Notes: generated by a model from the sequence alone, not told the origin. 64,000 nt of DNA from Bacteroidales bacterium (GCA_016931575.1 JAFGEO010000146.1:55728-119727); one strand, 5' to 3'; counted from the first letter of the stretch, positions 2,175 through 48,222 are shown. A program made the numbers and translations.

Positions 2175-2753
2175 ATGACACTAACAGTAAGCCTCATCTA
2201 CGGATCCGTACGAAAGAACCGTCTGGGAATACAGGTGGCAAAATACCTGGAAGGAAAACTCAGCGAGCGGAATATCCGGGTACATTTTATTGATCCCCTG
2301 GAGTATCCCCTTCCGCTGCTTGATAAGATGTACAAGGATTATGAACCGGGAACGGCTCCGGCGTTGCTTGAAAGGCTGGCAAAACGTCTGGTATCGTCCG
2401 ATGGATTTCTGCTCGTCACCGGGGAGTACAACCATACCCTCCCCCCGGCACTGACCAATCTGCTTGATCATTTTCATGCCGAGTACCAGTATAAACCATC
2501 GGCTATCGCCTCCTATTCTGATGGTTCATTTGGGGGTGTAAGGGCTGCCGACCACCTCAGAATGCTGGCCGGGCAGTTGGGGATGCCGGCCATACCCTTC
2601 ATTCAGCCATTTCCTGAAATTGAAAGCCTGTTCGATGATAAGTTGAACCTGCAAAGTCAACGTATTGAAGCATCTACGCAAAAGTTCCTGGACCAATTCA
2701 TCTGGTACCTTGAGGCTTTCCGCAATCAACGCGAGCAGGGAACCCGCTCATAA
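2175..2753 (+). CDS. NAD(P)H-dependent FMN reductase (flavodoxin-like fold)
   Basis: GSVRKNRLG FMN loop, TGEYNHTLPPALTNLLD and YSDGSFGGVRA motifs. ATG at 2175 preferred over the upstream TTG. Confidence 0.9.
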   Translation: MTLTVSLIYGSVRKNRLGIQVAKYLEGKLSERNIRVHFIDPLEYPLPLLDKMYKDYEPGTAPALLERLAKRLVSSDGFLLVTGEYNHTLPPALTNLLDHFHAEYQYKPSAIASYSDGSFGGVRAADHLRMLAGQLGMPAIPFIQPFPEIESLFDDKLNLQSQRIEASTQKFLDQFIWYLEAFRNQREQGTRS

Positions 2754-2792
2754 AACCACCTTTCCCAATACGAATACTGAATGGTTCCGGTC

Positions 2793-4430
2793 CTATTCAA
2801 CCAGGAGCCGGGTGGTGTACGCCCCGTCCCGATTGATAACCCGCAGGAGGTAAAGCCCGGTGTCCAGCACCCCGGGAAACTGGTATATCTCGTTAACCTT
2901 TAGGAGATCCTGGCATACCAGTTGTCCCTTTGCAGTATAGATTGCCAGTTGTCCCCCTGCATACTTTTCTCCCGGATCGATAGAGAAGCTCCCGTTTGAA
3001 GGATTGGGGTATACCCTGATTCCCTGGTCGTCATGCAGGATTCCGGCATCCTCAATCACCAGGGGTGCCTTGATATACCATTGCTGGGTAAAATGCTCAT
3101 TGAAAGGCCACTGCTGGGCATTGGCGCCATCGTAGGTATAGGCATTGACAATTTCCAGTGCCTGGTAACTATTTCGGTTCATGATGCGGGAATAAGCCCC
3201 CATCCTGCCGATATACCATTGCTGGCCCGGTGCACCGGTATAGGATGAAACCTGAACATTCGCTCCATTGCTGACAGATCCTCCAGCCACCTCCAGGGCT
3301 TTCTCCGGATCATGCACCGGGGAGATCCTGTAGTAGTGGTTATCGAGGTATTCGAAGGTCCATTGCTGGTGATCGAGTCCGGCTTCTGAAGCCAGCGCTA
3401 CATTGGCTCCCTCATCCGTCCCGGCACCTTCCACCTCGATGATCTTGTTGCTGTGCCGGTTTTTCATGACGTAGGGGCCCTGTTCAATCTTACCGGTGGG
3501 CTCGTATTCTGCAACAGGCCAGCCATCGACCCACCTGAGTTTTGAGACTTTCAGGTAGGATGCCCCTCCGGCAGCACCATGATAGTAATGATAGCTCAGA
3601 AGGGTGTCCAGCAGGCCAAAATGTCCGGGGCCCAGGTAATTTCCATCCGAGTGTAAAAAAGAAGTTCCGCCACCCAGGTTGCAATCGATGCTGTCTTTAT
3701 CATAAAAGGGACCTGTTGGATTGGCCGAGCGGCCCATAAATATCTGGTACGTGGAATTGATCCCGCTGCAACAGCTTCCCCGGTTAAAAAAGAGGTAATA
3801 CAAGCCATCGTGTTCAGCCAGGTGACCGGCCTCGCACCGATTGTTGGCAACATGGGTAATGTTGGTGGCTTCAAGGGGTTTTCCGGTTAACGAATCGAGC
3901 TCCGTCATCACGATCCCATCCCACCAGGAACCATAGAGCATCCATACTTTCCCGTCGTTATCCTTGAAAATATCTGCATCAATGGCATTTACCGGCCAGG
4001 TATCATCTGAATAAGTGACCATTCCCTGGTCCTCCCAGTTTCCACTGCCCAGGGAATCGGTTGTAGCCAGGCCAATGGCCGAGTTTTGCGACCCGAAGCT
4101 TGAGCAGGAATAGTAGATATGCCATTTCCCGTTCATATAGGCAATCGCCGGGGCCCAGAAATTGCCCCCGAAACCGTCAACATAGGTATTGATCCACGCA
4201 GGCCAGGTGCCAACCGGAAAAACGGGATCTTCCTCCCTCCAATTGCTGAAACCGGCATTTGTCGCCGACATGACCCAGATACCATTCCCGGTGTTGAACG
4301 ACCAGTACCTGTCTCCTTCCTTCACCAACTCTGTCGGGTCGTGGGAAGGCTGGGCTTTTAGTTGAAACCAGATGACTTGCAGCGAAATCATCATGAGGGT
4401 GATAATGCCAATCAGTTGTATACGCTTCAT
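2793..4430 (-). CDS. GH43 endo-arabinanase-like enzyme with ricin-type CBM13 and T9SS C-terminal sorting domain
   Basis: HDPT, WAP, NAIDA, YGSWWDGI and GPGH GH43 motifs; QQW ricin repeats; VYPNPS...GLYLLRV T9SS tail; signal peptide. Confidence 0.9.
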   Translation of the reverse strand: MKRIQLIGIITLMMISLQVIWFQLKAQPSHDPTELVKEGDRYWSFNTGNGIWVMSATNAGFSNWREEDPVFPVGTWPAWINTYVDGFGGNFWAPAIAYMNGKWHIYYSCSSFGSQNSAIGLATTDSLGSGNWEDQGMVTYSDDTWPVNAIDADIFKDNDGKVWMLYGSWWDGIVMTELDSLTGKPLEATNITHVANNRCEAGHLAEHDGLYYLFFNRGSCCSGINSTYQIFMGRSANPTGPFYDKDSIDCNLGGGTSFLHSDGNYLGPGHFGLLDTLLSYHYYHGAAGGASYLKVSKLRWVDGWPVAEYEPTGKIEQGPYVMKNRHSNKIIEVEGAGTDEGANVALASEAGLDHQQWTFEYLDNHYYRISPVHDPEKALEVAGGSVSNGANVQVSSYTGAPGQQWYIGRMGAYSRIMNRNSYQALEIVNAYTYDGANAQQWPFNEHFTQQWYIKAPLVIEDAGILHDDQGIRVYPNPSNGSFSIDPGEKYAGGQLAIYTAKGQLVCQDLLKVNEIYQFPGVLDTGLYLLRVINRDGAYTTRLLVE

Positions 4431-4568
4431 ATCAATCACAATTTACGATAAACTGCCGACAAGATAGCTAAACCCTGCTTCCTGCATGTGCAGCATTGTG
4501 TCAGGATGGTGGAGCGATGTGTAATTTTGCCATCTCCTTTCGGATAGCTTTGGAACCCGGGAATTCAT

Positions 4569-4612
4569 AAAAAAGCCGGAGGACATTCAGCAGATCATGA
4601 AGGTTCTCCGGC
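4569..4612 (-). terminator. Probable intrinsic terminator downstream of the ferredoxin gene
   Basis: GCCGGAGG...TTCTCCGGC stem next to an A6 run (U-tract on the minus strand). Confidence 0.55.
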
Positions 4613-4676
4613 AATTCTCTACCCTACGGGAAATGCAAGGCTGAGCCATAAAAAACCACTAAGTTACCTATTTCTA

Positions 4677-4868
4677 TTACTCCTCGTATTTAATAATTTC
4701 GACCGGGCAGCTATCCGCAGCTTCGCGGATATCCTCCTCGTTGGCTTCAAGGTCCGCATCATTTTTTACCATTGCCTCATCGGGCATTTCAAATACATTC
4801 GGACAAATCTCTTCACACATTCCGCATGAAGTACATCCCTCTTCGATCCATACTTTTTTTATTGCCAT
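4677..4868 (-). CDS. Small single-cluster [4Fe-4S]/[3Fe-4S] ferredoxin
   Basis: CTSCGMCEEICP...AADSCPVEII cysteine pattern; 63 aa; directly downstream of hcp. Confidence 0.93.
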   Translation of the reverse strand: MAIKKVWIEEGCTSCGMCEEICPNVFEMPDEAMVKNDADLEANEEDIREAADSCPVEIIKYEE

Positions 4869-4987
4869 CGTTCTACTTTAATATCTATTCACTGTGAGTC
4901 TTTCAGCGAAGACCAGAATACGGGCAGTCACCACGGTGAAAAGACGTGGTGACTGCCACCTGCCCTTAAGCAGGGCAGTAGTAAGTT

Positions 4988-6634
4988 CTATGCCACATGA
5001 AGGGCCACATCTTCTTCGACCTTACCAATGCCTGCAATCCCGAAGTTCTCGACCAGCACCCTGGCTACATTGGGCGATAAAAAGGCTGGCAGCGTTGGCC
5101 CGAGATGGATATTCTTCACCCCCAGGTATAGCAGGGCCAGTAAAACGATCACCGCCTTCTGTTCATACCATGCGATATTGTAGGCAATGGGTAACTCATT
5201 GATATCGTTAAGTTCAAACACTTCCTTTAGCTTCAGGGCGATCACAGCCAGGGAATAGGAATCGTTACACTGACCGGCATCCAGCACACGGGGTATCCCC
5301 CCGATATCGCCGAGTGGCAGTTTGTTGTACCTGTACTTGGCGCATCCTGCGGTAAGAATTACCGTATCCTGCGGGAGTTTTTCGGCGAACTCAGTATAGT
5401 ATTCACGACCCTTCATGCGCCCGTCGCATCCGGCCATTACCAGGAATTTCTTAATAGCGCCTGATTTGACTGCATCGACCACCTTATCTGCCAGCTGAAG
5501 CACCTGGTTGTGAGCAAAGCCGCCAATGATCTCTCCGGTTTCGATTTCCGTTGGGGCCGGCAAACGTTTTGCATGTTCAATAATCTCTGAGAAATCTTTT
5601 GGTTTACCATCTGTTCGGTCGGGTATGTGCGTGCATCCCTCAAAACCGGATGCCCCGGTGGTATATACCCTGTCTTTATAGCTTTCCCTTGGCGGAACGA
5701 TACAATTGGTGGTAAAAAGGACCGGACCGTTGAAGCTCTCAAACTCCTCCTTCTGCTTCCACCATGCATTGCCGTAGTTGCCGACAAAGTGCTCATATTT
5801 CTTAAAAGCAGGGTAATAGTGTGCCGGCAGCATCTCACTATGGGTGTAGACGTCTACCCCGGTACCATCCGTTTGCTTCAGCAGCTCTTCCATATCCTTA
5901 AGATCGTGTCCGCTGATCAGGATCGCAGGATTGCTCCGAACACCGATATTCACTTTTGTCATTTCAGGATGTCCGTAAGAATCAGTATTTGCCTTGTCCA
6001 GCAGTGCCATCACGTTCACCCCGTACTCTCCACACTCCAGGGTCAGACTAACAAGCTCATCCACACTGATATCGGTACGTGTGGTGGCAACCAGGGCCTT
6101 GTGCATGAAAGCATATACCTTCTTATCGGTATATCCCAGGTTAAAGGCATGCTCAGCATAGGCAGCCATCCCTTTCACGCCGTAGGTCAGCAGCTCTTTC
6201 AGGGAGCGGATATCTTCATTGGACTCGTTCAGGATACTCACCAGCAGACTTTTATTGGTGATTGCCTGCTGGTCGGATGCTGACCATATTGCCGGATCCG
6301 GGGCACCCTCTGGTATGGCAATTCCGTTATCAACCAACGCAGATCTCAGGTTTTCCCTAACCGCAATCCCCTCCCTGATCTTGTTTGAGATCTTTTTATC
6401 ATCAAAGTTGGCGTTGGTAATGGTCATAAACAGTGCTTCAAAGACAAATTGGTCAGCCGCTGCTGCGGGGATTGAGTGCTTTTCAGCCAAAACAGCCTAC
6501 CAGGAAACTCCTTTGGAAACATAAACCAGCAGGTCCTGCAGGTTTGAAGTAGTATCCTGCTTTCCACATACTCCGATTTTTGTACATCCGGTACCCTTAG
6601 CAGCCTCCTGGCATTGAAAACAAAACATGCTCAT
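4988..6634 (-). CDS. hcp: Hybrid cluster protein / hydroxylamine reductase, 548 codons, with one in-frame TAG at codon 46 (6497-6499); possible pseudogene
   Basis: N-terminus [25 protein letters not shown] (Hcp cubane cysteines) is in frame with the 500-aa ORF containing [33 protein letters not shown] and WYEQKA. Confidence 0.93.
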
Positions 6635-32131: not shown

Positions 32132-33124
32132 TTATTTGCTTTGTATTACTATCGTATCGTTTTCCAGCCTGTAGTCAAATTGGTTGTACCGTTTCATGAT
32201 ATCCAGTGCCTGAAAAATGCTTTTGTTCTTATCGATCAGCCCGGAGAAGACTTTATCATTCAATTCATCCGACAGCACCACGATTTCAATATTGAAGTTT
32301 CTTTCCAGCTGCTTAATGATCGATCTGAACTGCTCCTTCTCAAACAGGTATTTTCCATCCATCCAGATGGTGGCCAGGTCGGAATCGATGGGTAATTTTA
32401 CCAGCTTTCCTGAAGTCTTATCATACTTTGCCTGCTGATCGGGCCGGAGATAGAATGGATCCCGGTAATTTTTATCATTAGCATGATAAATGCCTATTGA
32501 ACCTTCAAGAAGGGTCGTTTTTATTTCATTGTTATCGGGATAGTTTCTGACATTAAACCGGGTACCAAAAACCCTGATGTTTATAGCACCGCTCTGTACA
32601 ATAAACGGATGATCCGAATCATGTGCCACTTCAAAATAACCTTCTCCCTCAAGCCTAACCTGCCGGTACTTTCCTTTAAACTCATCGGGGTATGAAAGGG
32701 ATGAACCTGAATTCAGAAATGCAAGGGTACCATCGGGCAACACGATTTTTGATTTGTTCCCAAATGAGCAAAAAACCTCAACCCTATTCCCGGAATCCAG
32801 CCTGACTACTTTATTCATAAACAAAAAGATTCCCGATGCGATAAAAAGCAGGATAGAAGCAGCGGCAGCAAATTTCCATACCCTCAATTTACGATTGTAG
32901 CGGCTTGTTATGATTGCACCCTGAACCCTTGAGCTCACCCGGTCCCTGAGCACTTCCGGAAACTCCTTCTTTGTCATTCCTACACTTTTCAGCGTTTCGA
33001 ATGTTTTCCGGTTCGCTTCAGATTCTTCAATCCATGAGTTAACGATTTCTTTTTCCTGCTCGCTGGCAGAATCATCCAAAAGCTTTGCGATTAAATTCCA
33101 AATTGTTGTGTCCTTGTCTTGCAT
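32132..33124 (-). CDS. fecR: FecR-family anti-sigma factor
   Basis: One TM; LPDGTLAFLNSGSSLSYP, LEGEGYFEV, VFGTRFNV; normal FecR C-terminal domain. Confidence 0.93.
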   Translation of the reverse strand: MQDKDTTIWNLIAKLLDDSASEQEKEIVNSWIEESEANRKTFETLKSVGMTKKEFPEVLRDRVSSRVQGAIITSRYNRKLRVWKFAAAASILLFIASGIFLFMNKVVRLDSGNRVEVFCSFGNKSKIVLPDGTLAFLNSGSSLSYPDEFKGKYRQVRLEGEGYFEVAHDSDHPFIVQSGAINIRVFGTRFNVRNYPDNNEIKTTLLEGSIGIYHANDKNYRDPFYLRPDQQAKYDKTSGKLVKLPIDSDLATIWMDGKYLFEKEQFRSIIKQLERNFNIEIVVLSDELNDKVFSGLIDKNKSIFQALDIMKRYNQFDYRLENDTIVIQSK

Positions 33125-39828: not shown

Positions 39829-40770
39829 CTACCGGCCTGCTTCGATGGGCAACATGTACCCAACCGATATCCCATAGTACATCGATACCGGATAGGCAAT
39901 GCTGACATCCTGTGTTGTTGGAATATTCAGGGTACAACTGAGCTCAATATCAAAGTCGCCGAGTGAAATGGCCAGCGGAACATTCACCTGGGTGTTCAGG
40001 AGCCCGAAAACCTCTTTTGTACCCGTGTAAGATCCTGAAGCCATGCTGCCTGTCTGGCCGGTAGTTACTGTTTCCGTCCCCAGAAAGAGGGATAGTTCCG
40101 GCGATGTGTATACTTTATTGTTCCTCTTCAGCTTAACCAGGGTAAAGCGCGAATACACCGCCATTGATAGATTTGATGCCAGTCCTTCCCCGAATAAAAA
40201 GCTTCCTGACAGCCTCGATCCAAACCATTTTTTACGGTAGCTCAGTCCCAGGCTGAGACTGTTTTTATCGGGGTAGAGTTCAGCTAACAGGGGATCAGCA
40301 TAAATAAACCTGCTGTACGAACCACGCAGGTTAAACTCCTTTTTTTTACCGATTGCCTTACCGTACCCCACCGACAGGGTCGTGTTATTGTATCCGGGAG
40401 AAAGCTGGCTGAACCACCTGCCTGATAGGCCTATAAATAATCCGGATGAGGTATAGTAATAGATATGCCCGGAGATGTTGATCATATCTTCCCCGATCTC
40501 CCGTCCGGCATACATCGTTTTGCTGTTAACAGCAGTACCTGCATAGAAAAAATGATACTTTGCAGGTTCACCCGGAATGATCAGGGGATCGCTATCGTTG
40601 TACACCAGGTCATTGAGCAGCGAATCAAGGTGGTCGGCCTGGGAAAAACCCAAAAGTCCTGTGAAGAGGAAAATGGTACTCAGAAAATATGTTGGCCACC
40701 CACTTAGCCTGAAAAGCTTCCGGATGCCGGCAGCTTTTTTCGATCGAAAAATCTTAAATACCTGGTACAT
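39829..40770 (-). CDS. Probable outer-membrane beta-barrel protein of unknown function
   Basis: Signal peptide; alternating strands; C-terminal YYGISVGYML. Confidence 0.65.
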   Translation of the reverse strand: MYQVFKIFRSKKAAGIRKLFRLSGWPTYFLSTIFLFTGLLGFSQADHLDSLLNDLVYNDSDPLIIPGEPAKYHFFYAGTAVNSKTMYAGREIGEDMINISGHIYYYTSSGLFIGLSGRWFSQLSPGYNNTTLSVGYGKAIGKKKEFNLRGSYSRFIYADPLLAELYPDKNSLSLGLSYRKKWFGSRLSGSFLFGEGLASNLSMAVYSRFTLVKLKRNNKVYTSPELSLFLGTETVTTGQTGSMASGSYTGTKEVFGLLNTQVNVPLAISLGDFDIELSCTLNIPTTQDVSIAYPVSMYYGISVGYMLPIEAGR

Positions 40771-40870: not shown

Positions 40871-41380
40871 TTAGTTTTTACCGCCGTTTGTTCCACCCTG
40901 GTTATGCTGGTAGTTTTCACGTACCTGTTGCATCTGTCCTTCCTGAGTCTGCGTTCCGGTATTCTCGCGGTTTTGCTCGCGGACCTGGGTTTTCAGTTGC
41001 TCCTTATTCTGCTCTCCTGCCTGCTGACCTCCTGTCGCTTCACCTACCCGGTTTTGTTCCTGGTTCTGCACCTGGAGCATCTCGCGTTGTTCAACGGAAA
41101 GTGATTCTTCAAATGCCAGTTTCTTCTGTTCGCGGGTCATCTCCTGGTTCTCCAGAATTTCAATCTGCTCCTCGTTCAGAGAGGCTTTAAAGCGTTCCCG
41201 GTTCTGTGTCTGAACCATATTCTGGATCAACTCCTGTTCCTGGGTAGCTGTCTGGGTTTGTACCTGGTTCTGTTCCATCGTCTGAACCTGATCTTTTGTC
41301 TGTTCTTCCTGTGCGCTGACTACTCCTGATGTCAGGAATAATCCCATTGCTAAACTGAGTGTTAATGATAATGTTTTCAT
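40871..41380 (-). CDS. Secreted Gln/Glu-rich protein with SLxxEQ (LTxxQ-like) repeats
   Basis: Signal peptide MKTLSLTLSLAMGLFLTSGVVSA; FKASLNEEQ and FEESLSVEQ repeats; very Q-rich. Confidence 0.8.
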   Translation of the reverse strand: MKTLSLTLSLAMGLFLTSGVVSAQEEQTKDQVQTMEQNQVQTQTATQEQELIQNMVQTQNRERFKASLNEEQIEILENQEMTREQKKLAFEESLSVEQREMLQVQNQEQNRVGEATGGQQAGEQNKEQLKTQVREQNRENTGTQTQEGQMQQVRENYQHNQGGTNGGKN

Positions 41381-41439
41381 CTTATTTAAAATTACGTTAA
41401 ACAAAATTGTTTTTCTTCAGATCGTTCTTTATCATTAAA

Positions 41440-41465
41440 CCGAATGAAAATTTGTTTACCCTACC
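41440..41465 (-). promoter_or_regulatory. Candidate ECF-sigma promoter GGTAGGGTAAA-N9-ATTCGG upstream of the Q-rich gene
   Basis: Same motif and same spacing as at 43871-43896. Confidence 0.75.
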
Positions 41466-41766
41466 TTTTTTTTGAAAAAAAAGTTTTCTTGATTTTGCGA
41501 TAACGTAAGCCCGGATTCAGCGATAAAGGTAAGGGAAAAGAAAATAAGTAAGCATGATTATTCAGGAAGAAGCTTCTGCATGAAAATATTGTTGGTTATA
41601 CGATGCAGGGGAAAGTTATCACCCTAAGCCAAATTTATTGTTCACCCAGAGAATAATTTGCCCCTCATTAGCAGGCTACTGCCCTAATCCATTGCCCGTT
41701 GCCCCTTGGGGGCTTTTTTCCTGCATGTTTGAAAAGAAGGACAGCCCTGAATTGTAGCTCAGCATT

Positions 41767-41817
41767 CACCCTGAAAGGGTGAGATACCATAACCCAGGGC
41801 GTTGCCCCGGGCTATGG
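41767..41817. repeat. REP-like double-hairpin element
   Basis: CACCCTGAAAGGGTG plus CCATAACCCAGGGCGTTGCCCCGGGCTATGG; degenerate copies nearby (41690-41750). Confidence 0.55.
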
Positions 41818-41952
41818 GAACGGAGGTCCCCGGAGGTGCACGCACCATCCATCAATTATGTGATGACAATCCATGCACCGCACTGCCCACATTAACTCTG
41901 AGAGACTAAGGGCAGAAATAACCAGGTGAGTGCAGAGCGTGAGAGTCTATAC

Positions 41953-41988
41953 AAAAAAAAGGCCTGTGAGCATCTCCTCACAGGCCTT
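41953..41988 (-). terminator. Intrinsic terminator of the sigma/anti-sigma operon
   Basis: AAGGCCTGTGAG-N6-CTCACAGGCCTT stem with a U8 tract on the minus strand, 21 nt after the anti-sigma stop. Confidence 0.8.
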
Positions 41989-42009
41989 ATCTGTTTCCCT
42001 GGACCCGGA

Positions 42010-43335
42010 TCACATCCCCGGCCCCTTCCCGGAGCCCTGAGAGCCATTCCCGCCGGCATCCATATTCTCCTTATTTTCCTGCATCTGTTGCCGGAGGATC
42101 TCCTTATTCTGATTGCGGGCACCTTCGCGCGATTGCTCCTGCATCTGCATTTTCTGTTGGTCTTTAACTTCCCCTTCTGTTTGTGTGCCGCCAGTATTCC
42201 CCTGTGACATCCCTGCGCGTTCGGCATTCTGCTCCTGCAGCAATTCCAGCTGCCCGGGAGAAAGCGACTCCAGGAAAGCCTTCCTGATCTGCTCCCTGCT
42301 CATCTGCTTATCTTCGAGGATGCTGATTTGTTCGGGAGAAAGTGATGCCCGGAACCTGTCCTGAACCTGCCTGGTTTCTGATCCCTGCTTAGCTTCTGCA
42401 TTTTCCTTCGGTTGCTGCTCCCGGTTCCCAGACAATATTCCGGGCTGATCTTCGGTCTGCTGCCCTTGCCTGGCATTTTCCATTTCCCGTAAAGGGGTCT
42501 GTGCCGGCTCTTCCACGCTCTCTGCATCAGCTGTTCCCTGCATCACTTTTTCTTCTTCGTGCACACGGGTACTTTCCTGGTTTTTCGTTTTGATTTTTCC
42601 TGCTTCATTTTCCGGGACTTTAAGCTTTTCGACAGGCGTTGAGAGGATGTGGTCGATCTCCTCATTGATGATTTGCTCCCGGGTTTTATCCTGATTTTGC
42701 AGCTGCGGCTCAGAAGGGCGAACCACTTCGAGTTTATTATCCGACTTAAGGATGGCCTGCTGTCCTCCGGTAATTCTCACCCTGTTCCTGTGCGATGCAT
42801 CGACAACTTCCACCTTTCCGGATTCACAGGTCACATGATAATCACTTCCCCGGGAATAAACCAAAAAGCGGGTTCCCAAAACGGCGACTTCAGCTTTCTC
42901 CGAGATCACCCGGAAGTTTTTCCCATGCGTCACCTCGAACAGGCCTTCACCTTTTAAATGCACCTCCCGGAAAAACATCCATTTCAGGGGCTTGTAGGAC
43001 AGGTTTGATTCGCCATACAACTTAACCCTGGAATCATCCGGCAGCACCACCTCCTTTTCTTCCCCTGCAAGACTGACGATCTTCTTTGTATAGCTATTCA
43101 TGGCAGCAGCAAACCCGATAAACAAGACAAGTACAGCGGCGGCGGCATACCTGACCAACCGCATCGGAACGATCGCGCGGGCAGGCCGGGCACCTTTGTC
43201 CTCAATTTTTACCTCCATATCTGCCCAGATCTCTTCTTTCGTCCTGCTCCAGGCAATTCCGGAACCCGAAACCAGCTTCTCCAGATCCTGGTTCAATCCA
43301 GATAAATCTTCTCTGTTGTTTACGTCTTTTATCAT
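42010..43335 (-). CDS. FecR-family anti-sigma factor with an atypical Gln-rich C-terminal domain
   Basis: TM followed by LPDDSRVKL, LKGEGLFEV and VLGTRF FecR motifs; the C-terminal ~110 aa resemble the 40871..41380 protein. Confidence 0.88.
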   Translation of the reverse strand: MIKDVNNREDLSGLNQDLEKLVSGSGIAWSRTKEEIWADMEVKIEDKGARPARAIVPMRLVRYAAAAVLVLFIGFAAAMNSYTKKIVSLAGEEKEVVLPDDSRVKLYGESNLSYKPLKWMFFREVHLKGEGLFEVTHGKNFRVISEKAEVAVLGTRFLVYSRGSDYHVTCESGKVEVVDASHRNRVRITGGQQAILKSDNKLEVVRPSEPQLQNQDKTREQIINEEIDHILSTPVEKLKVPENEAGKIKTKNQESTRVHEEEKVMQGTADAESVEEPAQTPLREMENARQGQQTEDQPGILSGNREQQPKENAEAKQGSETRQVQDRFRASLSPEQISILEDKQMSREQIRKAFLESLSPGQLELLQEQNAERAGMSQGNTGGTQTEGEVKDQQKMQMQEQSREGARNQNKEILRQQMQENKENMDAGGNGSQGSGKGPGM

Positions 43336-43820
43336 GATTGATGCAATACTTTTTTAAAATAGCTCAAGGCGACATTCATTCGCTTTTCAACTGCTTTCAC
43401 GCTGATATTCAATCGGTCAGCAATTTCATGGTACTTCAGTCCTTCCATCCGCGAGAGTAGAAAAACGATGCGGTTTTTTTCACTTAAGCTGGCCAGGGCC
43501 TTCTTATAATTCTCATACAACTCCTTATGGCTTAACTCATCCTCCGGGGTAAGCTCAAGCTTATTGTTTTGTATGGAATTCCGATAGTTCATTTCAAGAG
43601 TCGATCTTCTGTATTTGCTGATGTACATATCTGTGGCCATTTTATACAGTAGCCTGATCGCTGTTTTCGGATCAACTTCCAGCTGCTTTTCCCATACGCG
43701 CAGAAAAACATCCTGGGCCAGATCCGAGGCTTCTTCCATCCCTGCACCCCTGTAAAACAGGTAGCTACGCACGGAATCGAAGCAGGAATCAAATAACAAC
43801 TTAAATTCTTCTCTTGTCAA
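43332..43820 (-). CDS. ECF RNA polymerase sigma-70 factor
   Basis: DLAQDVFLRVWE and VFLLSRMEGLKYHEIADRLNISVKAVEKRM; TTG start; stop overlaps the anti-sigma start. Confidence 0.93.
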   Translation of the reverse strand: MTREEFKLLFDSCFDSVRSYLFYRGAGMEEASDLAQDVFLRVWEKQLEVDPKTAIRLLYKMATDMYISKYRRSTLEMNYRNSIQNNKLELTPEDELSHKELYENYKKALASLSEKNRIVFLLSRMEGLKYHEIADRLNISVKAVEKRMNVALSYFKKVLHQS

Positions 43821-43870: not shown

Positions 43871-43896
43871 CCGAATAGAAATGGTTTTACCCTACC
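43871..43896 (-). promoter_or_regulatory. Candidate autoregulatory ECF-sigma promoter GGTAGGGTAAA-N9-ATTCGG
   Basis: Second copy of the 41440-41465 motif, about 50 nt upstream of the sigma start. Confidence 0.75.
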
Positions 43897-44103: not shown

Positions 44104-47100
44104 CTATTCCCTACCCGTCAACAAATATTTTGCATGGTGAATACTTCCACCCTGGCTTTCAATGCTGATAAAATAGATGCCACTCGTTAAGTGACTGATA
44201 TTGATTGGACTCCTATCTGAAGCCTCGAGGTCCTGGATATAGACCACCCGATGATTAATGTCGGTAATGCGCAGTACTCCTCCCCGGAAACTTTGACTAT
44301 ATAGAATATTCAGCAAGCCTTGACCTGGATTCGGATAGATTACCGGCTCTGTATTGCTAAGCGTGTTTAGATCGCTAAAAATGATATGAAACTCTTCTCC
44401 ATAGGCTGTACCCAGACTATTTGTCACAAAACTCCTGAAGTAGATCCCGGAACCAATTTCAATCTCCGTAGGATAAATAGTATCCTCAAAATTCCCTTCT
44501 CCGGTTCCGAGAGTGATGACATGATCACTCAGATCGGGATTCCGGTTATAATTATGGCAAAGACCTCTTACTGCATCCGGTTCGCCCCCATGCGAAATAA
44601 CCCGACCAAATACCAGGATATCATCATAGTCCAAAAGATCATAGCTCAGTGTGCTGACTTCCGGGAGAACGGGATTAACCTGCATGATCCGGCTAACCGG
44701 AACTGCTGCAAGAATGGTATCATTACCCGCCTGTTCAGCTGTGATGGTGCAGATGCCGGCCAGCTGGGGCTCAAGCATCCTATCCGGGCCGACTAGGGCA
44801 ATAGCTTCATCCGATGAAGTTAGAGCGATCTCAAGTCCAAAATTACTTTCAGTGGAGAGCGCAAAACTTTCAGATCCGTAATTCACCGGTGAAATGGAGT
44901 CGAACTGAATACTTTGCAGATGCTTCCTTACAAAAGATGACTCAACTGAAAAGTCAGAGTAGCGGCCTGAAGCATCAACAGACTGAACACCCCAGGAATA
45001 AGTACCCGGCGTCAGGGAATCGATGATAAAATAATTCAGGGCCGAACCAGTGTTATGCTGGTTGCAAAGCTTCTGGAAGCCGCTGACACCTGCCAATGGC
45101 GAGACAATGTAAGTGTCACTTCCGTCCGCCCTTATATAAACATGGTAATTTATTCCGTTCCCGGAATTGAGATCATCCGTTGCAGGTTCCCAGCTCAGGG
45201 TCATCTTTACATCCTCCTGGGTATATTCCAGACCATCCGGAACAGAAGGCGGCAGGTTCGTCTTTGTGGTTTTGTTTTCCATGATGTAGCAAACGGGGGT
45301 GTTCTGAGCGATCAAGCCCGACAGGAATACATCCTGATCCCCATCCTTATCATAGTCTGCCACTGCTGCGGAAGTCCAGTCGAGTGGCATTACCTGAACA
45401 CTTTCATCCAAGGTAAAGCTGTGATCATCGTTCTGAGCATAAAATGCTGCGGTGCGCTGATCAAATGCCTGTTCCCCGGAAAGAATAATATCCACGAGGC
45501 CATCCTGATTAAAATCGGTCCATTTGACATCCCCATTGCTGATTTCCCTATCCGTCAGATTCAGGTATTCTGAAAAATTGCCGTTACCATCATTCTGATA
45601 GATACAGGATTTCCTGACCTGGGGCTCCAGTGCAATAAGACCGGTGATTATGAGGTCGGGGTCCCCATCCTCATCCATATCTGCCCAGTCGGATTTCCCC
45701 TCCAGAAAATTATCAATCCCTGAATCAGTAATCCGTTCGAAGGATTCTCCACCCTGATTGATGTACAATTCAGTCAGCGGTACGTTATCTGTTGCCTCAC
45801 CGCTGAGGAGCAGATCGGTAAAGCCATCACTGTTTACATCGCATAAGCTGATAGTCGACTGGCTAAGCTGCGAAAAATCAACTTGCTGGTTCTCCCCAAA
45901 AACACCCCCTCCCAGGTTCCGGAACAATTTTGTTGTTCTCTCTCCCGCGGTAGTATTCATACCAGTAAGGATCACATCCATGCGCCCATCCCGGTCATAA
46001 TCCAGGATTGCGATCTCACCATACACCGTGGCCGGAATTTCAACACCTTCCAGGCGGGAGAAATTGGAAGCCCCGTCATTCAGGAAGATCTGGGCATACT
46101 CATCATCGGTCGCTCCACTGATCAGGATATCGGCATCATTGTCCCCGTCCAGGTCAGCAATTGCAAAATCGCCATCCATAAATGCAGGCAGTCCGGCATC
46201 CTCCTTCTCCGGGAATTCATTCTCCGTATTCAGATACACTGATAATCTGGTACCAAATAAAGCTTGCGAACCATAGGTCAGCAGGTCCATATCATCATCG
46301 TTATCCAGGTCAGCCCAAAGGTTTTTCCCGTTAAAGGTTGCGGGAATACTTGCGGGAACATAGGTATTAAAAAGATCTGTTTTGAATTCCAGGGAGTTTT
46401 CGGTTGACAGGCTTGTGAGGTATTTCTCCATGCCCATGCTGCCATTAACTTCCATTACAACTACTGAATAGCTCTCATTTGCAACCAGATTGCTTACTAC
46501 AACACTGTCATCCTGGCCAGCATAAACGCAATAGAAACCGGATCCGTCAATTGCTGATCCATTGCCAAAGCTGTTATCAGCTGTGTAATGAGTATCGTCC
46601 ATTGGAATTGCTGGTTCAACGGTACCTTCAGCCATGAATACGATCCGCTGTTCACCATCGCCAGTGGTAAATCTGATCAGGGTAGAGTCGGCTGAATTTG
46701 CAGCTATGGTCAGCTGACTGGTTTGAATGGTGGGTGGGTTCACCGCAATATTCAAAGTTTGAAATCCGGCAAATTCCGATCCTCTGAACCCATTGTCAAC
46801 CGTTTGTACGCTCCAGATATAGGAACCGGAAAGCGGTTTCGGAAACACAAATACCGTATCCATCCCGGCATTTCCATGTTCAACCGTTTTTAGGAATCCG
46901 GTATGGAAATCCGCGTGAGGGTGCACCATTTTTCCGGTATCACCCACAACTCCAAGAATGATATTATAGGTCAGAGAACCTTCCGGAGTAAGATCATCGG
47001 TAGCCGGAGACCAGGTAAAGGTGATGGCAGTATCGCCGAGCTCAGCATTCAAATTCAAGGGTGGCAGGGGATCCGCATTTTTTACAACAATATTATTTAC

Positions 47101-48222
47101 AAACATCCTTCCAAAGTTGGATCCGGCCACAAAAGCATCCATATCTCCGTCGTTGCTATAATCTGCCCAATCGATGCTCCCATAGATAAAATCGTTTATG
47201 AAATCGGGTTGCCGGGTAAAGGTGCCATCCTGATTATTTTTAAATACCTCGCCATGGTAGGTAAAATATTTATCCATCCCTCCGATCAGCACATCGGGAT
47301 AGCCGTCATTATCGTACTCGCCCCAGCAGATATCCCCGCGGGCAACCCCAAAGTTTGTGAAAGAATCCATTTCAAAGCTGTTATCCGTATTGATATAAAG
47401 CCAAATACCTATTGAATCGGCTTGTCCGGACTGGAGCAGATCAAAATCCCCGTCGCGGTCGTAATCGCTGAATTCAATAGAAGCATATTGCGTTTGTTTC
47501 AGCCCTGCAGACAGGGGAGTAAAACTTTTATCCCCGGCATTCAGGTAAATATCAGCCACCGGATTATTCATGCTGTAACCTGCCAGGGCAATATCAGGAA
47601 ATCCGTCCCCGTTGAGGTCGGTAAAATCGATATCCCCATAGGAAATTCCGGGCAGATTGTGCCCGGCAATCTCAGCAAACTGGTCATCTCCGAGGTTTTC
47701 ATAGATCCTGAACACCCTTCCAACCACCAGGGCATCCCCGGTAAGGAACAGGTCCAGATCGCCATCGCGGTCGATATCCGACCAACCCACCGAACCATTG
47801 GCAAAAGCGGTCAGTTCAAGCTGATCCAGCCAGGTAAATGTGCTGTCCCCGTTATTTCTGTATATCCTTGAAAACCTGTTAAGCAGGGTATCCTGTCCTG
47901 ACACTGCCAGGTCGAGGTACCCATCCCGGTTATAATCGCCCCACTTCACGGCACATTTGGACAGGCCTTTGAACTGAGCTTTCTCTTCATAGGTAAAGGT
48001 ATTCCCACCGTCGTTTCTGTAAATCCTGGTAATCGGGTAACCGCCTTGCAGGGCACCGGAGACAAGCACGTCAATTTTGCCATCGTTGTTATAATCCCCC
48101 CAGTCGGAATCGGCTTCATAAACCGCCGGATAGGATAATACATTGAAGTTATTGTTGATCTGACCTTTTACGAGAATGAAGGAGAAAGCCAAGGTGAGTA
48201 GAACTGAACCGATGTGTCGCAT
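44104..48222 (-). CDS. Large T9SS-secreted FG-GAP/VCBS-repeat protein with Fn3-like domains
   Basis: Many (W)GDYNxDGxxD repeats in two blocks, each followed by an Fn3-like segment; IYPNPG...GIYFISI tail; signal peptide. Confidence 0.88.
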   Translation of the reverse strand: MRHIGSVLLTLAFSFILVKGQINNNFNVLSYPAVYEADSDWGDYNNDGKIDVLVSGALQGGYPITRIYRNDGGNTFTYEEKAQFKGLSKCAVKWGDYNRDGYLDLAVSGQDTLLNRFSRIYRNNGDSTFTWLDQLELTAFANGSVGWSDIDRDGDLDLFLTGDALVVGRVFRIYENLGDDQFAEIAGHNLPGISYGDIDFTDLNGDGFPDIALAGYSMNNPVADIYLNAGDKSFTPLSAGLKQTQYASIEFSDYDRDGDFDLLQSGQADSIGIWLYINTDNSFEMDSFTNFGVARGDICWGEYDNDGYPDVLIGGMDKYFTYHGEVFKNNQDGTFTRQPDFINDFIYGSIDWADYSNDGDMDAFVAGSNFGRMFVNNIVVKNADPLPPLNLNAELGDTAITFTWSPATDDLTPEGSLTYNIILGVVGDTGKMVHPHADFHTGFLKTVEHGNAGMDTVFVFPKPLSGSYIWSVQTVDNGFRGSEFAGFQTLNIAVNPPTIQTSQLTIAANSADSTLIRFTTGDGEQRIVFMAEGTVEPAIPMDDTHYTADNSFGNGSAIDGSGFYCVYAGQDDSVVVSNLVANESYSVVVMEVNGSMGMEKYLTSLSTENSLEFKTDLFNTYVPASIPATFNGKNLWADLDNDDDMDLLTYGSQALFGTRLSVYLNTENEFPEKEDAGLPAFMDGDFAIADLDGDNDADILISGATDDEYAQIFLNDGASNFSRLEGVEIPATVYGEIAILDYDRDGRMDVILTGMNTTAGERTTKLFRNLGGGVFGENQQVDFSQLSQSTISLCDVNSDGFTDLLLSGEATDNVPLTELYINQGGESFERITDSGIDNFLEGKSDWADMDEDGDPDLIITGLIALEPQVRKSCIYQNDGNGNFSEYLNLTDREISNGDVKWTDFNQDGLVDIILSGEQAFDQRTAAFYAQNDDHSFTLDESVQVMPLDWTSAAVADYDKDGDQDVFLSGLIAQNTPVCYIMENKTTKTNLPPSVPDGLEYTQEDVKMTLSWEPATDDLNSGNGINYHVYIRADGSDTYIVSPLAGVSGFQKLCNQHNTGSALNYFIIDSLTPGTYSWGVQSVDASGRYSDFSVESSFVRKHLQSIQFDSISPVNYGSESFALSTESNFGLEIALTSSDEAIALVGPDRMLEPQLAGICTITAEQAGNDTILAAVPVSRIMQVNPVLPEVSTLSYDLLDYDDILVFGRVISHGGEPDAVRGLCHNYNRNPDLSDHVITLGTGEGNFEDTIYPTEIEIGSGIYFRSFVTNSLGTAYGEEFHIIFSDLNTLSNTEPVIYPNPGQGLLNILYSQSFRGGVLRITDINHRVVYIQDLEASDRSPINISHLTSGIYFISIESQGGSIHHAKYLLTGRE

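Follow-up and report, generated by a model that had tools for sequence, protein, structure and literature searches.

What does an anti-sigma factor sense when it ends in a copy of a protein that is secreted from the neighbouring gene? The question is raised by a locus in a 64,000-nt stretch of Bacteroidales DNA (the window), where an ECF sigma factor, its FecR-type anti-sigma factor, a secreted Gln-rich protein (the free protein) and an outer-membrane β-barrel protein are encoded consecutively on the minus strand.

The sigma gene (43332..43820) encodes a 162-aa ECF factor of the FecI-like, Bacteroidetes type, with Pfam matches to Sigma70_r4_2, Sigma70_ECF and Sigma70_r2. It matches TIGR02985 (Sig70_bacteroi1) with E 2e-31, at a score of 109.3 bits that is below the curated cut-off of 126.4, and FecI models with E 4e-21. 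It is 60-72% identical to its orthologues at both fused and unfused loci, and 32% identical to the other ECF factor of the window. The start of the anti-sigma gene (42010..43335, 441 aa) overlaps the sigma stop (43332) by 4 nt. A terminator-like site (41959..41988), i.e. a G+C-rich hairpin of 12 bp with T8, lies 22 nt past the anti-sigma stop and parts the sigma/anti-sigma transcription unit from that of the free gene. The free gene (40871..41380) encodes 169 aa when read from the ATG before MKTLSL at 41380, or 177 aa from an alternative TTG start at 41404, and the barrel gene (39829..40770, an ORF of 313 aa) is the next to follow. The order of sigma, fused anti-sigma, free copy and barrel is the same in all six fused loci with readable flanks (the window, G030, L026, L027, L028 and L029).

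From N- to C-terminus the anti-sigma factor consists of a cytoplasmic part, one hydrophobic span, the FecR domain, a variable linker and a conserved tail with LSxEQ motifs. The span YAAAAVLVLFIGFAAAM (residues 63-79; 43099..43149) is presumed from its sequence to be a single membrane helix; its residues Y63, A64 and A65 are invariant in 12/12 anti-sigma sequences. The periplasmic FecR domain (PF04773, residues 86-176; 42808..43080) is matched with E 4.7e-13 and 49.8 bits, against a gathering cut-off of 24, and it matches PDB entries 4m0n and 4m0h ('putative anti-sigma factor') with E 9e-11. It contains an invariant VLGT (L153, G154 and T155 are identical in all 12 sequences) that aligns with VLG(A/G)SF of these PDB entries. 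E. coli FecR cleaves itself at a Gly-Thr, G181/T182 (PMC12036975), and we infer that Gly154-Thr155 (42871..42876) is the equivalent position and a candidate site of self-cleavage. The linker (residues 206-322, about 115 residues; 42370..42720) was recognized by its poorly conserved columns and its composition. It is acidic, of low complexity and non-globular, with 12% Q, 18% E and zero aromatic residues.

FecR is the sole Pfam domain detected in the 441-aa protein. An earlier note on this DNA had stated that the normal C-terminal domain of a FecR is missing, and this is confirmed; Pfam finds FecR_C (PF16344) neither here nor in any of 31 aligned relatives (0/31), whereas the window's other FecR protein (32132-33124) has both FecR and FecR_C. 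Its statement that no TonB transporter is linked is also borne out. There is no adjacent TonB-dependent gene at the locus, and an STN transducer is absent from five other fused loci as well. Searches of the fused system with Pfam, and with tblastn using two orthologous transducers as queries, gave no remnant of FecR_C or of a transducer. The input to FecR is a TonB-driven pulling on FecR_C (PMC12036975). With no FecR_C and no transducer, the input to the window anti-sigma factor cannot be of this kind.

The C-terminal end of the protein (residues 323-441; 42013..42369) is instead the free protein in tethered copy, as judged by BLASTP, profile matches and a tree. The paralogy of some 110 aa with the adjacent secreted protein had been proposed from a hand count, and on recounting the ungapped 50-residue stretch is exactly 29/50 identical. 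BLASTP of the two whole proteins with compositional adjustment aligns them with 49/106 residues identical (46%), one gap and E 5e-20. Judged by these alignments, the similarity is far beyond that expected from a Gln/Glu-rich composition. Both copies have two motifs of L-T-x-x-Q type in which S, L and Q are invariant; these are SLSPEQ and SLSPGQ in the core of the tail (42220-42369), and SLNEEQ and SLSVEQ in that of the free protein (41057-41206). One invariant core, S, L, E, Q, L ... A, F, S, L, Q, L, is common to both. Compared as DNA, the segments are not significantly similar (the best blastn match spans 12 nt with E 0.016), and this is therefore an old paralogy and not an assembly repeat.

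An assembly chimera, or a recent accident confined to this genome, is a vanishingly improbable origin for the fusion and we reject it, given that the architecture recurs in G030, which belongs to a different genus of this family, and also in four independent MAG records and 30 proteins of several sources. Identical pieces of the linker/tail and the free gene are present in a second sample from the study that supplied this genome. The earlier note had asked whether the fusion is unique to this assembly and whether fused and free copies occur together. Thirty FecR proteins from other samples carry the tail, and the two copies co-occur at 6/6 fused loci.

Eleven other full-length relatives of the fused anti-sigma factor are 35-59% identical to it. 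Among the best 150 matches of a domain-profile search there are 19 representatives (at the 50% level) of fused size; these are included in the 31 aligned proteins, 30 of which have a FecR domain by Pfam. In the alignment of 12 sequences strong conservation is seen in two blocks, the FecR domain and, after it, the tail core, and 13 of the 54 invariant columns fall within the latter (residues 328-368, F328 to E368). The tails (n=6) form one clade (support 92/90), and a second clade (89/96) holds 6/7 of the free copies at fused-type loci. The single clade of tails points to one old duplication from which all of them arose. In three of the six pairs the tail branch is clearly longer than that of its free partner (0.78 vs 0.54 in G000, 1.34 vs 0.43 in G030 and 2.37 vs 1.14 in L029), which could mean that the tail is under looser constraint; in L026-L028 both branches are short, with an excess of 0.16 or less. 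These longer branches would fit a tail that is a neutral leftover, or simply a spacer or stabilizer, after the deletion of FecR_C and transducer, with a sigma factor that is leaky or controlled in another way. So would the low complexity of the remaining C-terminal half. We strongly doubt this, however. The 13 invariant and several nearly invariant columns of the tail core have been kept in 12 proteins with no more than 34-59% overall identity, the fusion itself is retained in 30/31 aligned proteins, and the protein core has persisted while the DNA has diverged past detection, so that purifying selection on the tail is indicated.

The state before the fusion can be seen in unfused orthologues. 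These anti-sigma factors are 40-46% identical to the fused form across the first ~200 residues, and fused and unfused proteins lie in one clade (support 96). FecR_C is present at residues 219-288 in the proteins of G024, G015, G031 and G035, and in these genomes as well as in G057 and G037 the anti-sigma gene is overlapped or abutted by a next gene encoding 840-872 aa. Pfam was run on two of these next-gene proteins. That of G024 has a TonB-dependent barrel, Plug, CarbopepD_reg_2 and STN (E 2e-5, below the cut-off), and that of G015 has Plug and CarbopepD_reg_2 only. Since the unfused orthologues have FecR_C and are followed by a TonB-dependent transducer with an STN domain, the comparison indicates that the tail is a replacement for the transporter input. 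In the ancestral form, which related genomes have kept, the FecR_C of the anti-sigma factor docks on the STN domain of the transducer; in the fused lineage FecR_C and transducer have been lost, and a duplicate of the regulon product sits on a flexible linker of ~115 residues. In G024, G015 and G031 the free gene and barrel lie downstream, behind the same promoter-like motif as in the window. Of the 10 genomes in which the orthologue is unfused, 6 lack the free gene at E <= 1e-5, and so the sigma factor is not universally tied to the free protein.

The motif in question is bipartite and 25 nt long, GGTAGGGTAAA-N3-ATTT-N2-ATTCGG, and lies ~50 nt before the sigma start codon (43871..43896). A second copy, assigned to repeat family D3, lies 60 nt before the free-gene ATG (41440..41465). 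These are the only two sites in the 4.8-Mb genome, and a stricter 26-nt form has two sites in the window vs none in 100 shuffles. The pattern GTAGGGTA-N13-KCGG has exactly two matches per genome in 5/5 genomes searched whole. All 10 matches precede either the sigma gene or the free gene, and a site precedes the free gene in each of the five. The motif also precedes the sigma gene in G030, G024, G015, G031 and L026-L029. Before the free gene the regular expression GTAGGGTA-N12-14-[TG]CGG is matched in L026, L027 and L028, while the site in L029 (GTAGGGTG) is one position off the whole-genome pattern. The search pattern was derived from the very sites then found and a reversed control gave 0-3 matches per genome, so the lack of the motif elsewhere is suggestive but not decisive. 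The motif would function as a promoter, and since it occurs exactly twice per genome, before the sigma and free genes, the free protein is probably the sole target of the sigma factor outside its own operon. That the free protein is a target at all was initially a guess, and now rests on this common promoter-like motif. The ECF factor would thus drive only two promoters, those of its own sigma/anti-sigma operon and of the operon of free protein and barrel.

The free protein has a signal peptide that, read from the sequence, ends VSAQ/EE, and its mature form, with a pI of 4.7, contains 23% Q, 17% E and 10% Asn. AlphaFold2 predicts it to be all-helical, with pLDDT >90 for core residues 50-110. 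The tail and the free protein are both acidic (pI 4.7-5.1), and differ from Spy in this respect. The link to Spy and CpxP that had been drawn from the LTxxQ repeats is weakly supported. On the positive side, Pfam LTXXQ (PF07813) is matched by 17/57 homologues at E <= 0.01, with 29.5-36.2 bits for three of them (P0045, P0076 and P0089) compared with a gathering cut-off of 24.3. By contrast, neither the free protein nor the 441-aa anti-sigma factor matches LTXXQ at E <= 0.1, 2/7 core sequences are matched with a best E of 0.0053, and a genome-wide search with the model is empty at E <= 1. Nor do sequences and folds of solved structures lend support. A profile run against PDB sequences gave nothing significant, with CpxP only at E 0.53-0.95, and the best PDB match of the monomer model in Foldseek had E 0.86, with neither Spy nor CpxP among the matches, although the monomer of a probable oligomer is a poor probe. 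Given the failure of the window proteins to match LTXXQ and the lack of a solved Spy or CpxP relative, 'Spy-like chaperone' is for them a transitive label only. The product may be described as a secreted, acidic, Gln-rich and probably helical protein of LTxxQ (Spy/CpxP-like) kind.

The tail might be purely a sensor of some periplasmic cue (a metal or cationic compound, unfolded protein or pH) with no interaction or competition with the free protein, which would be the effector for the same cue. The identical invariant core suggests that both copies probably recognize the same thing, their strong acidity would suit the binding of cations, and 2/57 homologues weakly match Pfam Metal_resist. There is also a resemblance to the RsgI/SigI systems of Clostridium thermocellum, in which the extracellular sensor module of the anti-sigma factor is of the same kind as modules of the regulated proteins, and sensor and product see the same ligand. 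In CnrYXH of Cupriavidus the periplasmic helical sensor CnrX acts on a membrane anti-sigma factor. Both differ from the window system in sigma family, fold and organism, and to our knowledge both lack a FecR domain as well as a free paralogue that is the only product of the regulon. We regard a pure sensor as rather unlikely, because a common ligand would make competition and feedback almost automatic, so that this explanation merges into the feedback reading given below. Moreover, neither the tail core nor that of the free copy contains any His or Cys.

The barrel gene directly follows the free gene in 12/12 loci read (the window, L017-L020 and L024-L030), and its 12 orthologues are 31-55% identical to the window protein. 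The N-terminal periplasmic segment has a conserved sequence Q-x-D-x-x-DSLL-x-D, in which Q44, D46, D49, S50, L51, L52 and D54 are nearly invariant. In G033 the free gene and barrel are paired, and none of the ORFs read in the 11 kb covered there is a sigma gene, which indicates that free protein and barrel make up a separate module. These observations would be expected if this were cell-surface signalling with a new outer-membrane partner. The tethered copy would reach the co-regulated barrel, for example at its N-terminal segment, in place of the contact between FecR_C and STN, and the free copy would be a periplasmic partner or cargo of the barrel; a non-globular linker of ~115 residues is consistent with such a reach. 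Nevertheless we think it unlikely. There is no TonB-box or energy input to transmit a signal, and Pfam finds no family, and no STN or other known signalling domain, in the barrel protein, which belongs to an uncharacterized Bacteroidota family in the Atlas. Its structure model has a barrel fold (pLDDT 68.5), and the Foldseek matches (OmpG, FapF, KdgM and PcoB, E 2e-6 to 1e-4) are of a generic, porin-like sort.

FapF is among these matches at rank 10-11 (E 4.5e-5, TM 0.42-0.51). A fibre system might be imagined, in which the adjacent barrel would export the Gln-rich protein, much as FapF exports FapC, for polymerization outside the cell, while the tethered copy co-assembles and reports a periplasmic back-log. 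The content of 23% Gln and 10% Asn in the mature protein would be in keeping with this, as would the dedicated barrel that always adjoins. However, OmpG, KdgM, Tsx, PcoB and autotransporter barrels match as well or better, so the fold match to FapF is generic. Furthermore, the core is predicted to be helical with pLDDT >90, unlike amyloid repeats, and homologues fall into LTXXQ, a periplasmic Pfam family. A fibre system is therefore very improbable.

The reading that we prefer, to which we give an even chance, is that of a feedback homeostat resembling CpxP in its logic, with an ECF/FecR module as its chassis. If it behaves as FecR does, the anti-sigma factor would cleave itself at Gly154/Thr155, and the C-terminal fragment with its tethered copy would shield the N-terminal fragment from site-1 and site-2 proteolysis. 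In FecR itself, cleavage can go no further while the C-terminal fragment is in place (PMC12036975). The behaviour of the tethered copy would then decide whether the shield stays. It could bind the client or ligand that the free protein binds, with which it would then be pulled away or degraded; alternatively, the free protein could pair with the tethered copy, capping and stabilizing it. By either route an abundance of unoccupied free protein would turn the sigma factor off and its depletion would turn it on, as with CpxP on CpxA. It is possible, if doubtful, that the pairing is homotypic, i.e. that tether and free protein make the same dimer as two free molecules, in which case the occupancy of the tether would report the unengaged periplasmic protein and set the rate of anti-sigma proteolysis.

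The system can be compared with several that are known. Like the Fec-type systems (FecI-FecR-FecA of E. coli and Fox, Fpv and Pup of Pseudomonas), it has a sigma gene overlapping that of a single-pass anti-sigma factor with a FecR domain and Gly-Thr; the sigma factor appears to be auto-regulated, and orthologues of the window pair keep FecR_C and an STN-bearing TonB-dependent transducer. It differs in that the window anti-sigma factor has neither, its C-terminus being a copy of the regulon product. These unfused orthologues and the conserved barrel gene after the free copy go beyond the earlier note, and the two-site motif, the apparent replacement of the transporter input and the probable single old duplication of the tail are new.

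In CpxP-CpxA and ZraP-ZraS, where the LTxxQ protein damps its own two-component sensor, a periplasmic helical LTxxQ-type protein is likewise the main product of an envelope pathway and is placed to feed back on a membrane sensor. ZraP is reported to be both chaperone and repressor. A CpxP tethered to the inner membrane was reportedly engineered by Raivio et al. in 2000; there also an LTxxQ protein is held at the inner membrane beside the sensor, but the window tether is natural, conserved and within the sensor polypeptide. CpxP is Cpx-induced, inhibits CpxA, is titrated by misfolded proteins and is degraded by DegP (PMC6737893). The window system departs from these in that its chassis is an ECF sigma factor with a proteolysis-controlled anti-sigma factor and not a histidine kinase, and in that the sensor goes beyond mere binding by carrying a covalently tethered paralogue, the LTXXQ membership of which is transitive.

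The cirYZ-spy system of Phocaeicola vulgatus and BT_4647-4649 of B. thetaiotaomicron, both Bacteroidales operons of three genes (ECF sigma, anti-sigma and Spy-like), have very narrow regulons, and the promoter is de-repressed on deletion of cirZ alone or of BT_4648-49, i.e. the anti-sigma and Spy-like genes (PMC13114119; bioRxiv 10.64898/2026.08.10.744002). Like these, the window factor would be a narrow-regulon Bacteroidota ECF sigma transcribing itself and a Spy-like gene, on the window side as judged from the motif alone. Compared by description, in the available portions of those accounts the anti-sigma factors are membrane-associated with a transmembrane domain, with no mention of FecR, a fused Spy-like domain or a barrel. 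The Spy-like gene is described there as co-transcribed with the sigma gene, whereas that of the window has its own promoter-like copy behind a terminator-like site.

A regulator of a kind that normally listens to a transporter, but bears in place of the listening domain a tethered copy of the probable product of its sigma factor, has the look of an inbuilt gauge for feedback on a periplasmic helper protein. If the pairing is homotypic, the anti-sigma factor would be a self-referential 'dipstick' sensor, having evolved when a domain for docking on a transporter gave way to a duplicate of the output. In this way cell-surface signalling modules in general could be converted into homeostats.

The minus strand of the window carries four consecutive genes. 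These encode an ECF sigma factor (43820-43332, minus strand, 162 aa), a FecR-type anti-sigma factor (43335-42010, minus strand, 441 aa) whose start overlaps the sigma stop, a secreted Gln-rich protein that we call the free protein (ATG at 41380 to 40871, minus strand, 169 aa), and a 313-aa ORF (40770-39829, minus strand) for an outer-membrane beta-barrel protein, the barrel. The sigma factor matches FecI models at 4e-21, and the Bacteroidetes ECF model TIGR02985 at 2e-31 with 109.3 bits, under its curated cut-off of 126.4. FecR-type anti-sigma factors are commonly viewed as slaves of a TonB-dependent transducer. In a Pfam scan the FecR domain was the sole domain of this anti-sigma factor, while the other FecR protein of the window (32132-33124) has both FecR and FecR_C. 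A terminator-like hairpin (41988-41959, minus strand; a 12-bp stem and T8) precedes the free gene, with a 630-bp spacer. A metatranscriptome library from the same study has a 163-nt contig on 41972-42134, which matches the 3′ end of the anti-sigma gene without a difference and breaks off within the hairpin; DNA carry-over is a possible source. We also note that a 1372-aa secreted protein is encoded directly upstream of the putative sigma promoter (44104-48222, minus strand). It contains many FG-GAP/VCBS-like DxDxDGxxD repeats and, by eye, has a C-terminal part that looks like a sorting domain for type IX secretion.

The anti-sigma factor ends in a segment (residues 323-441, the tail) that is paralogous to the free protein. 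The likeness had been claimed from an ungapped comparison of 50 residues, and recounting gave exactly 29 of 50 identical. BLASTP of the whole proteins aligned 106 residues at 46% identity with a single gap (E 5e-20, corrected for composition). At the DNA level there is no significant similarity between the tail and free segments. The paralogy is therefore old, and on that alone an assembly artefact is excluded.

The earlier note had raised the possibility of a fusion unique to this assembly, and the family proves to be wider. A word-indexed search returned 11 other full-length relatives of the fused anti-sigma factor with 35-59% identity, all 424-456 aa in length except for two that are shorter; the remaining 29 hits were ordinary FecR proteins with the match confined to the FecR domain. 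The core of the tail (DKFRASLTPEQISILENQQMSREEKRKAFMxSLSPEQxQLLxEQNxERA) is the second strongly conserved block of the alignment after the FecR domain, and the ~115 residues separating the two are variable and of low complexity. That the tail is a neutral leftover seems improbable to us. A profile of the shared core was built from an alignment of five free copies and two tails (A3); of 1.84 billion representative proteins, 226 matched it at E <= 0.001. Nineteen of the best 150 have the length of the fusion (402-449 aa) and carry the domain at their C-terminal end. In an alignment of 31 long proteins (A5) the FecR domain is present in 30 and FecR_C in none. The exception is P0107, a 595-aa repeat protein in which four stretches match the LSxEQ core profile and Pfam finds no FecR domain. 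Possibly this is another kind of fusion, or the same module expanded by repetition.

The fused form occurs in two of 61 related genomes, the window's own (G000) and G030, from a second genus within the family. Four fused MAG records (L026-L029) were added when one genome per species was scanned. In all six fused loci the order is sigma factor, fused anti-sigma factor, free copy (169-299 aa) and outer-membrane-type protein (272-318 aa), so that fused and free copies occur together in every one, as the earlier note had proposed to check. Scanning of metagenomes yielded three loci, one a duplicate of L026 and the other two free copies at contig ends, both behind the promoter-like motif described below. 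The barrel gene follows the free gene in 12 of 12 loci read. In another related genome, G033 (locus L024), a pair of free and barrel genes lies at 4076-5501 on the minus strand, the free copy having three clear LTxxQ-type motifs. No sigma or anti-sigma gene was found among the ORFs of at least 110 aa in the 11 kb examined there, and the pair is therefore a module that exists apart from the ECF system. L029 has, immediately before its fused locus (2358-4234, plus strand), genes for a second ECF sigma factor (193 aa), then for a membrane protein of 188 aa and a secreted protein of 127 aa with Cys-rich DKNNDGVCDN...HQGCK repeats.

The 630-bp spacer of the window, running from the anti-sigma terminator to the motif of the free gene, contains a small dispersed repeat (41679-41882, minus strand). 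This is found in seven other places on five contigs of the genome at 71-96% identity, and it probably accounts for the difference in spacer length between the window (630 bp) and G030 (115 bp). The only Rfam match, to the Acido-Lenti-1 RNA motif, lies within the repeat at 41767-41811; it is full-length but below threshold, with 28.9 bits where the gathering score is 37 (E 0.0011), and does not belong to the sigma/anti-sigma system.

The sigma gene and the free gene share a 26-nt bipartite upstream sequence, GGTAGGGTAAA-N3-ATTT-N2-ATTCGG. Allowing up to three mismatches, it occurs twice in the window and never in 100 shuffles, and the middle-free variant GGTAGGGTAAA-N9-ATTCGG with one mismatch allowed finds the same two matches in the 4.8-Mb genome. 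The pattern GTAGGGTA-N13-KCGG has exactly two matches in each of G000, G030, G024, G015 and G031, and all ten precede a sigma gene or a free gene, the pattern having been derived from the very sites it matches; the reversed control pattern has 0-3 matches per genome. In L026-L028 the motif stands before both genes, and the free-gene site of L029 is one position off the five-genome pattern. Two boxes at a fixed spacing, 50-60 nt ahead of the start codons, are the look of an auto-regulated ECF promoter. From these patterns we infer that the sigma factor would transcribe its own operon and that of the free gene, and little else.

The shared domain has two invariant S-L-x-x-(E)-Q motifs ~26 residues apart, with a third in the copies of genomes that carry the unfused anti-sigma factor. 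Its assignment to the LTxxQ (Spy/CpxP) proteins is weakly supported: the two motifs are there and homologues match LTXXQ, but the window's own proteins do not match the Pfam model, which found nothing in the whole genome at E <= 1. Of the seven core sequences two match it, weakly. Seventeen of the 57 free homologues from the profile match at E <= 0.01, and three proteins that the profile hit strongly (E 2e-22 to 5e-11) reach 29.5-36.2 bits, above the cut-off of 24.3. By this transitive homology the domain is, as judged from sequence, a divergent branch of the LTXXQ (Spy/CpxP/ZraP) family. AlphaFold2 gave an all-helical model of the free protein with a core pLDDT > 90. A Foldseek search of the PDB with this model found no solved relative (best E 0.86), and the profiles of A3 and of a further alignment, A4, found nothing significant among the sequences of solved structures, with CpxP only at E 0.53-0.95. 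In the ESM Atlas the free protein reached 0.83 with a 'Spy/CpxP family' cluster and 0.78 with a DUF3106 cluster, both under the counting level. Since the structure searches found no solved relative, the tail and free proteins are acidic and the core is without His and Cys, we therefore use the term LTxxQ-like and do not claim the identity of a Spy-type chaperone.

The barrel belongs to an unnamed Bacteroidota family. Twelve orthologues align with 31-55% identity to the window's protein, and the N-terminal segment is nearly invariant. The model is a beta-barrel (pLDDT 68.5), and in a fold search it matched OmpG, FapF, KdgM, Tsx, PcoB and autotransporter barrels without preference; the ESM Atlas leads are unnamed Bacteroidota clusters (0.98) and a TorF-like porin cluster (0.92). 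With a barrel gene behind the free gene throughout, the tail might dock on this co-regulated protein, a reading that we regard as fairly unlikely. That the genes form a secretion or fibre system is highly improbable in our view.

Ten of the 61 genomes have an anti-sigma factor that matches the first ~210 residues of the fused protein at E 1e-40 to 1e-82, yet is only 281-304 aa long. The four that were scanned (G024, G015, G031 and G035) all have FecR together with FecR_C at residues 219-288. In these four genomes and in G057 and G037 the next gene, overlapping or abutting that of the anti-sigma factor, encodes a protein of 840-872 aa. Pfam was run on two of the six, finding TonB_dep_Rec_b-barrel, Plug, CarbopepD_reg_2 and STN (E 2e-5, below cut-off) in that of G024, and only Plug and CarbopepD_reg_2 in that of G015. 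The orthologous sigma factors are 60-72% identical to that of the window, compared with 32% for the window's other ECF sigma factor. In a tree of 50 anti-sigma sequences, omitting P0011 (N-terminally short), P0107 (no FecR domain) and G020 (no intact ORF), fused and unfused forms fall in one clade apart from other FecR proteins with a support of 96. Within this clade the tree gives no clear order of the two forms, and it speaks neither for nor against a single origin of the fusion.

In G024, G015 and G031 the free and barrel genes lie 0.1 to 7 kb downstream of the transducer gene with the same motif in front. No such pair follows the transducer gene in G035, G057 and G037, and a search with the domain profile found no free copy at E <= 1e-5 in six of the ten genomes with an unfused orthologue. 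No remnant of a transducer or FecR_C was found in the fused loci by tblastn; a single hit in locus L017 was rejected as an unrelated TonB-dependent receptor gene on the other strand. In a tree of the core, the six tails form one clade (92/90) and six of seven free copies from fused-type loci another (89/96), with the free copies of unfused genomes mostly outside both. An inserted stretch is common to the tails and the free copies of fused genomes, and absent from the copies of unfused genomes. Nothing in the core tree points to gene conversion between a tail and its free copy, and the tail branch is clearly longer than that of its free partner in three of six pairs (G000, G030 and L029). In the simplest history, a normal cell-surface signalling unit would have gained the free and barrel genes as a regulon member, the free gene would then have duplicated, and a rearrangement would have put one copy in place of FecR_C and the transducer.

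How might such a protein work? According to PMC12036975, the C-terminal fragment of FecR remains attached to the N-terminal one and prevents any more cuts until it is removed by TonB and FecA, whereupon site-1 and site-2 cleavage frees the sigma factor. The VLGT motif is invariant in the alignment of the fused relatives, and the C-terminal fragment would therefore start at T155, carrying the linker and the tethered copy. Two PDB entries with FecR-domain chains, 4m0n and 4m0h ('putative anti-sigma factor'), have Ala in one and Gly in the other at the residue aligned to Thr155 of VLGT. On aligned sequence this looks like an engineered cleavage-site variant pair, and would fit the VLGT position being the site of self-cleavage.

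Whether the C-terminal fragment goes on shielding the anti-sigma factor would depend on the tethered copy, which may stand free, be occupied by a client or ligand, or have the free paralogue as a cap. The free protein, through competition or pairing, would then close a negative feedback loop. In PMC6737893, the LTxxQ protein CpxP is the most induced member of the Cpx regulon and an inhibitor of CpxA, for which titration by misfolded proteins and degradation by DegP are proposed. We give negative feedback of the free protein on the anti-sigma factor an even chance. The tail could also be a pure ligand sensor with no feedback, which we consider unlikely. Complex prediction with the tail (316-441, A5) and the free protein (25-169, A4) gave an ipSAE of 0.00 in both runs, without controls, and carries no weight either way on binding.

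The components are all of known kinds, namely an ECF sigma factor, a FecR domain and an LTxxQ-like protein. For Bacteroidales, Spy-like genes driven by ECF sigma factors are already published; two accounts of 2026 on gut members of the order (PMC13114119; bioRxiv 10.64898/2026.08.10.744002) describe ECF/anti-sigma pairs that have very narrow regulons and are co-transcribed with a Spy-like gene. No FecR-LTxxQ fusion turned up in full-text searches, as judged from titles, abstract openings and text passages, nor did a FecR-type anti-sigma factor in which a paralogue of its own regulon product replaces the transporter-docking domain, or a transporter-linked ancestor of the fused arrangement.

The finding means that the FecR proteolytic chassis can accept a wholly different periplasmic input. 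Transporter-linked and fused forms of one sigma/anti-sigma pair are kept in related genomes, and the states before and after can therefore be compared. We know of no Cpx system described in the Bacteroidota. If the tethered copy senses its free paralogue or a shared client, the circuit would be nature's equivalent, in this phylum, of the loop by which CpxP damps CpxA, and with two promoters and four genes it is compact enough to be rebuilt as a reporter. It also offers a first handle on an uncharacterised Bacteroidota gene pair, that of an acidic Gln-rich LTxxQ-like protein and an outer-membrane barrel.
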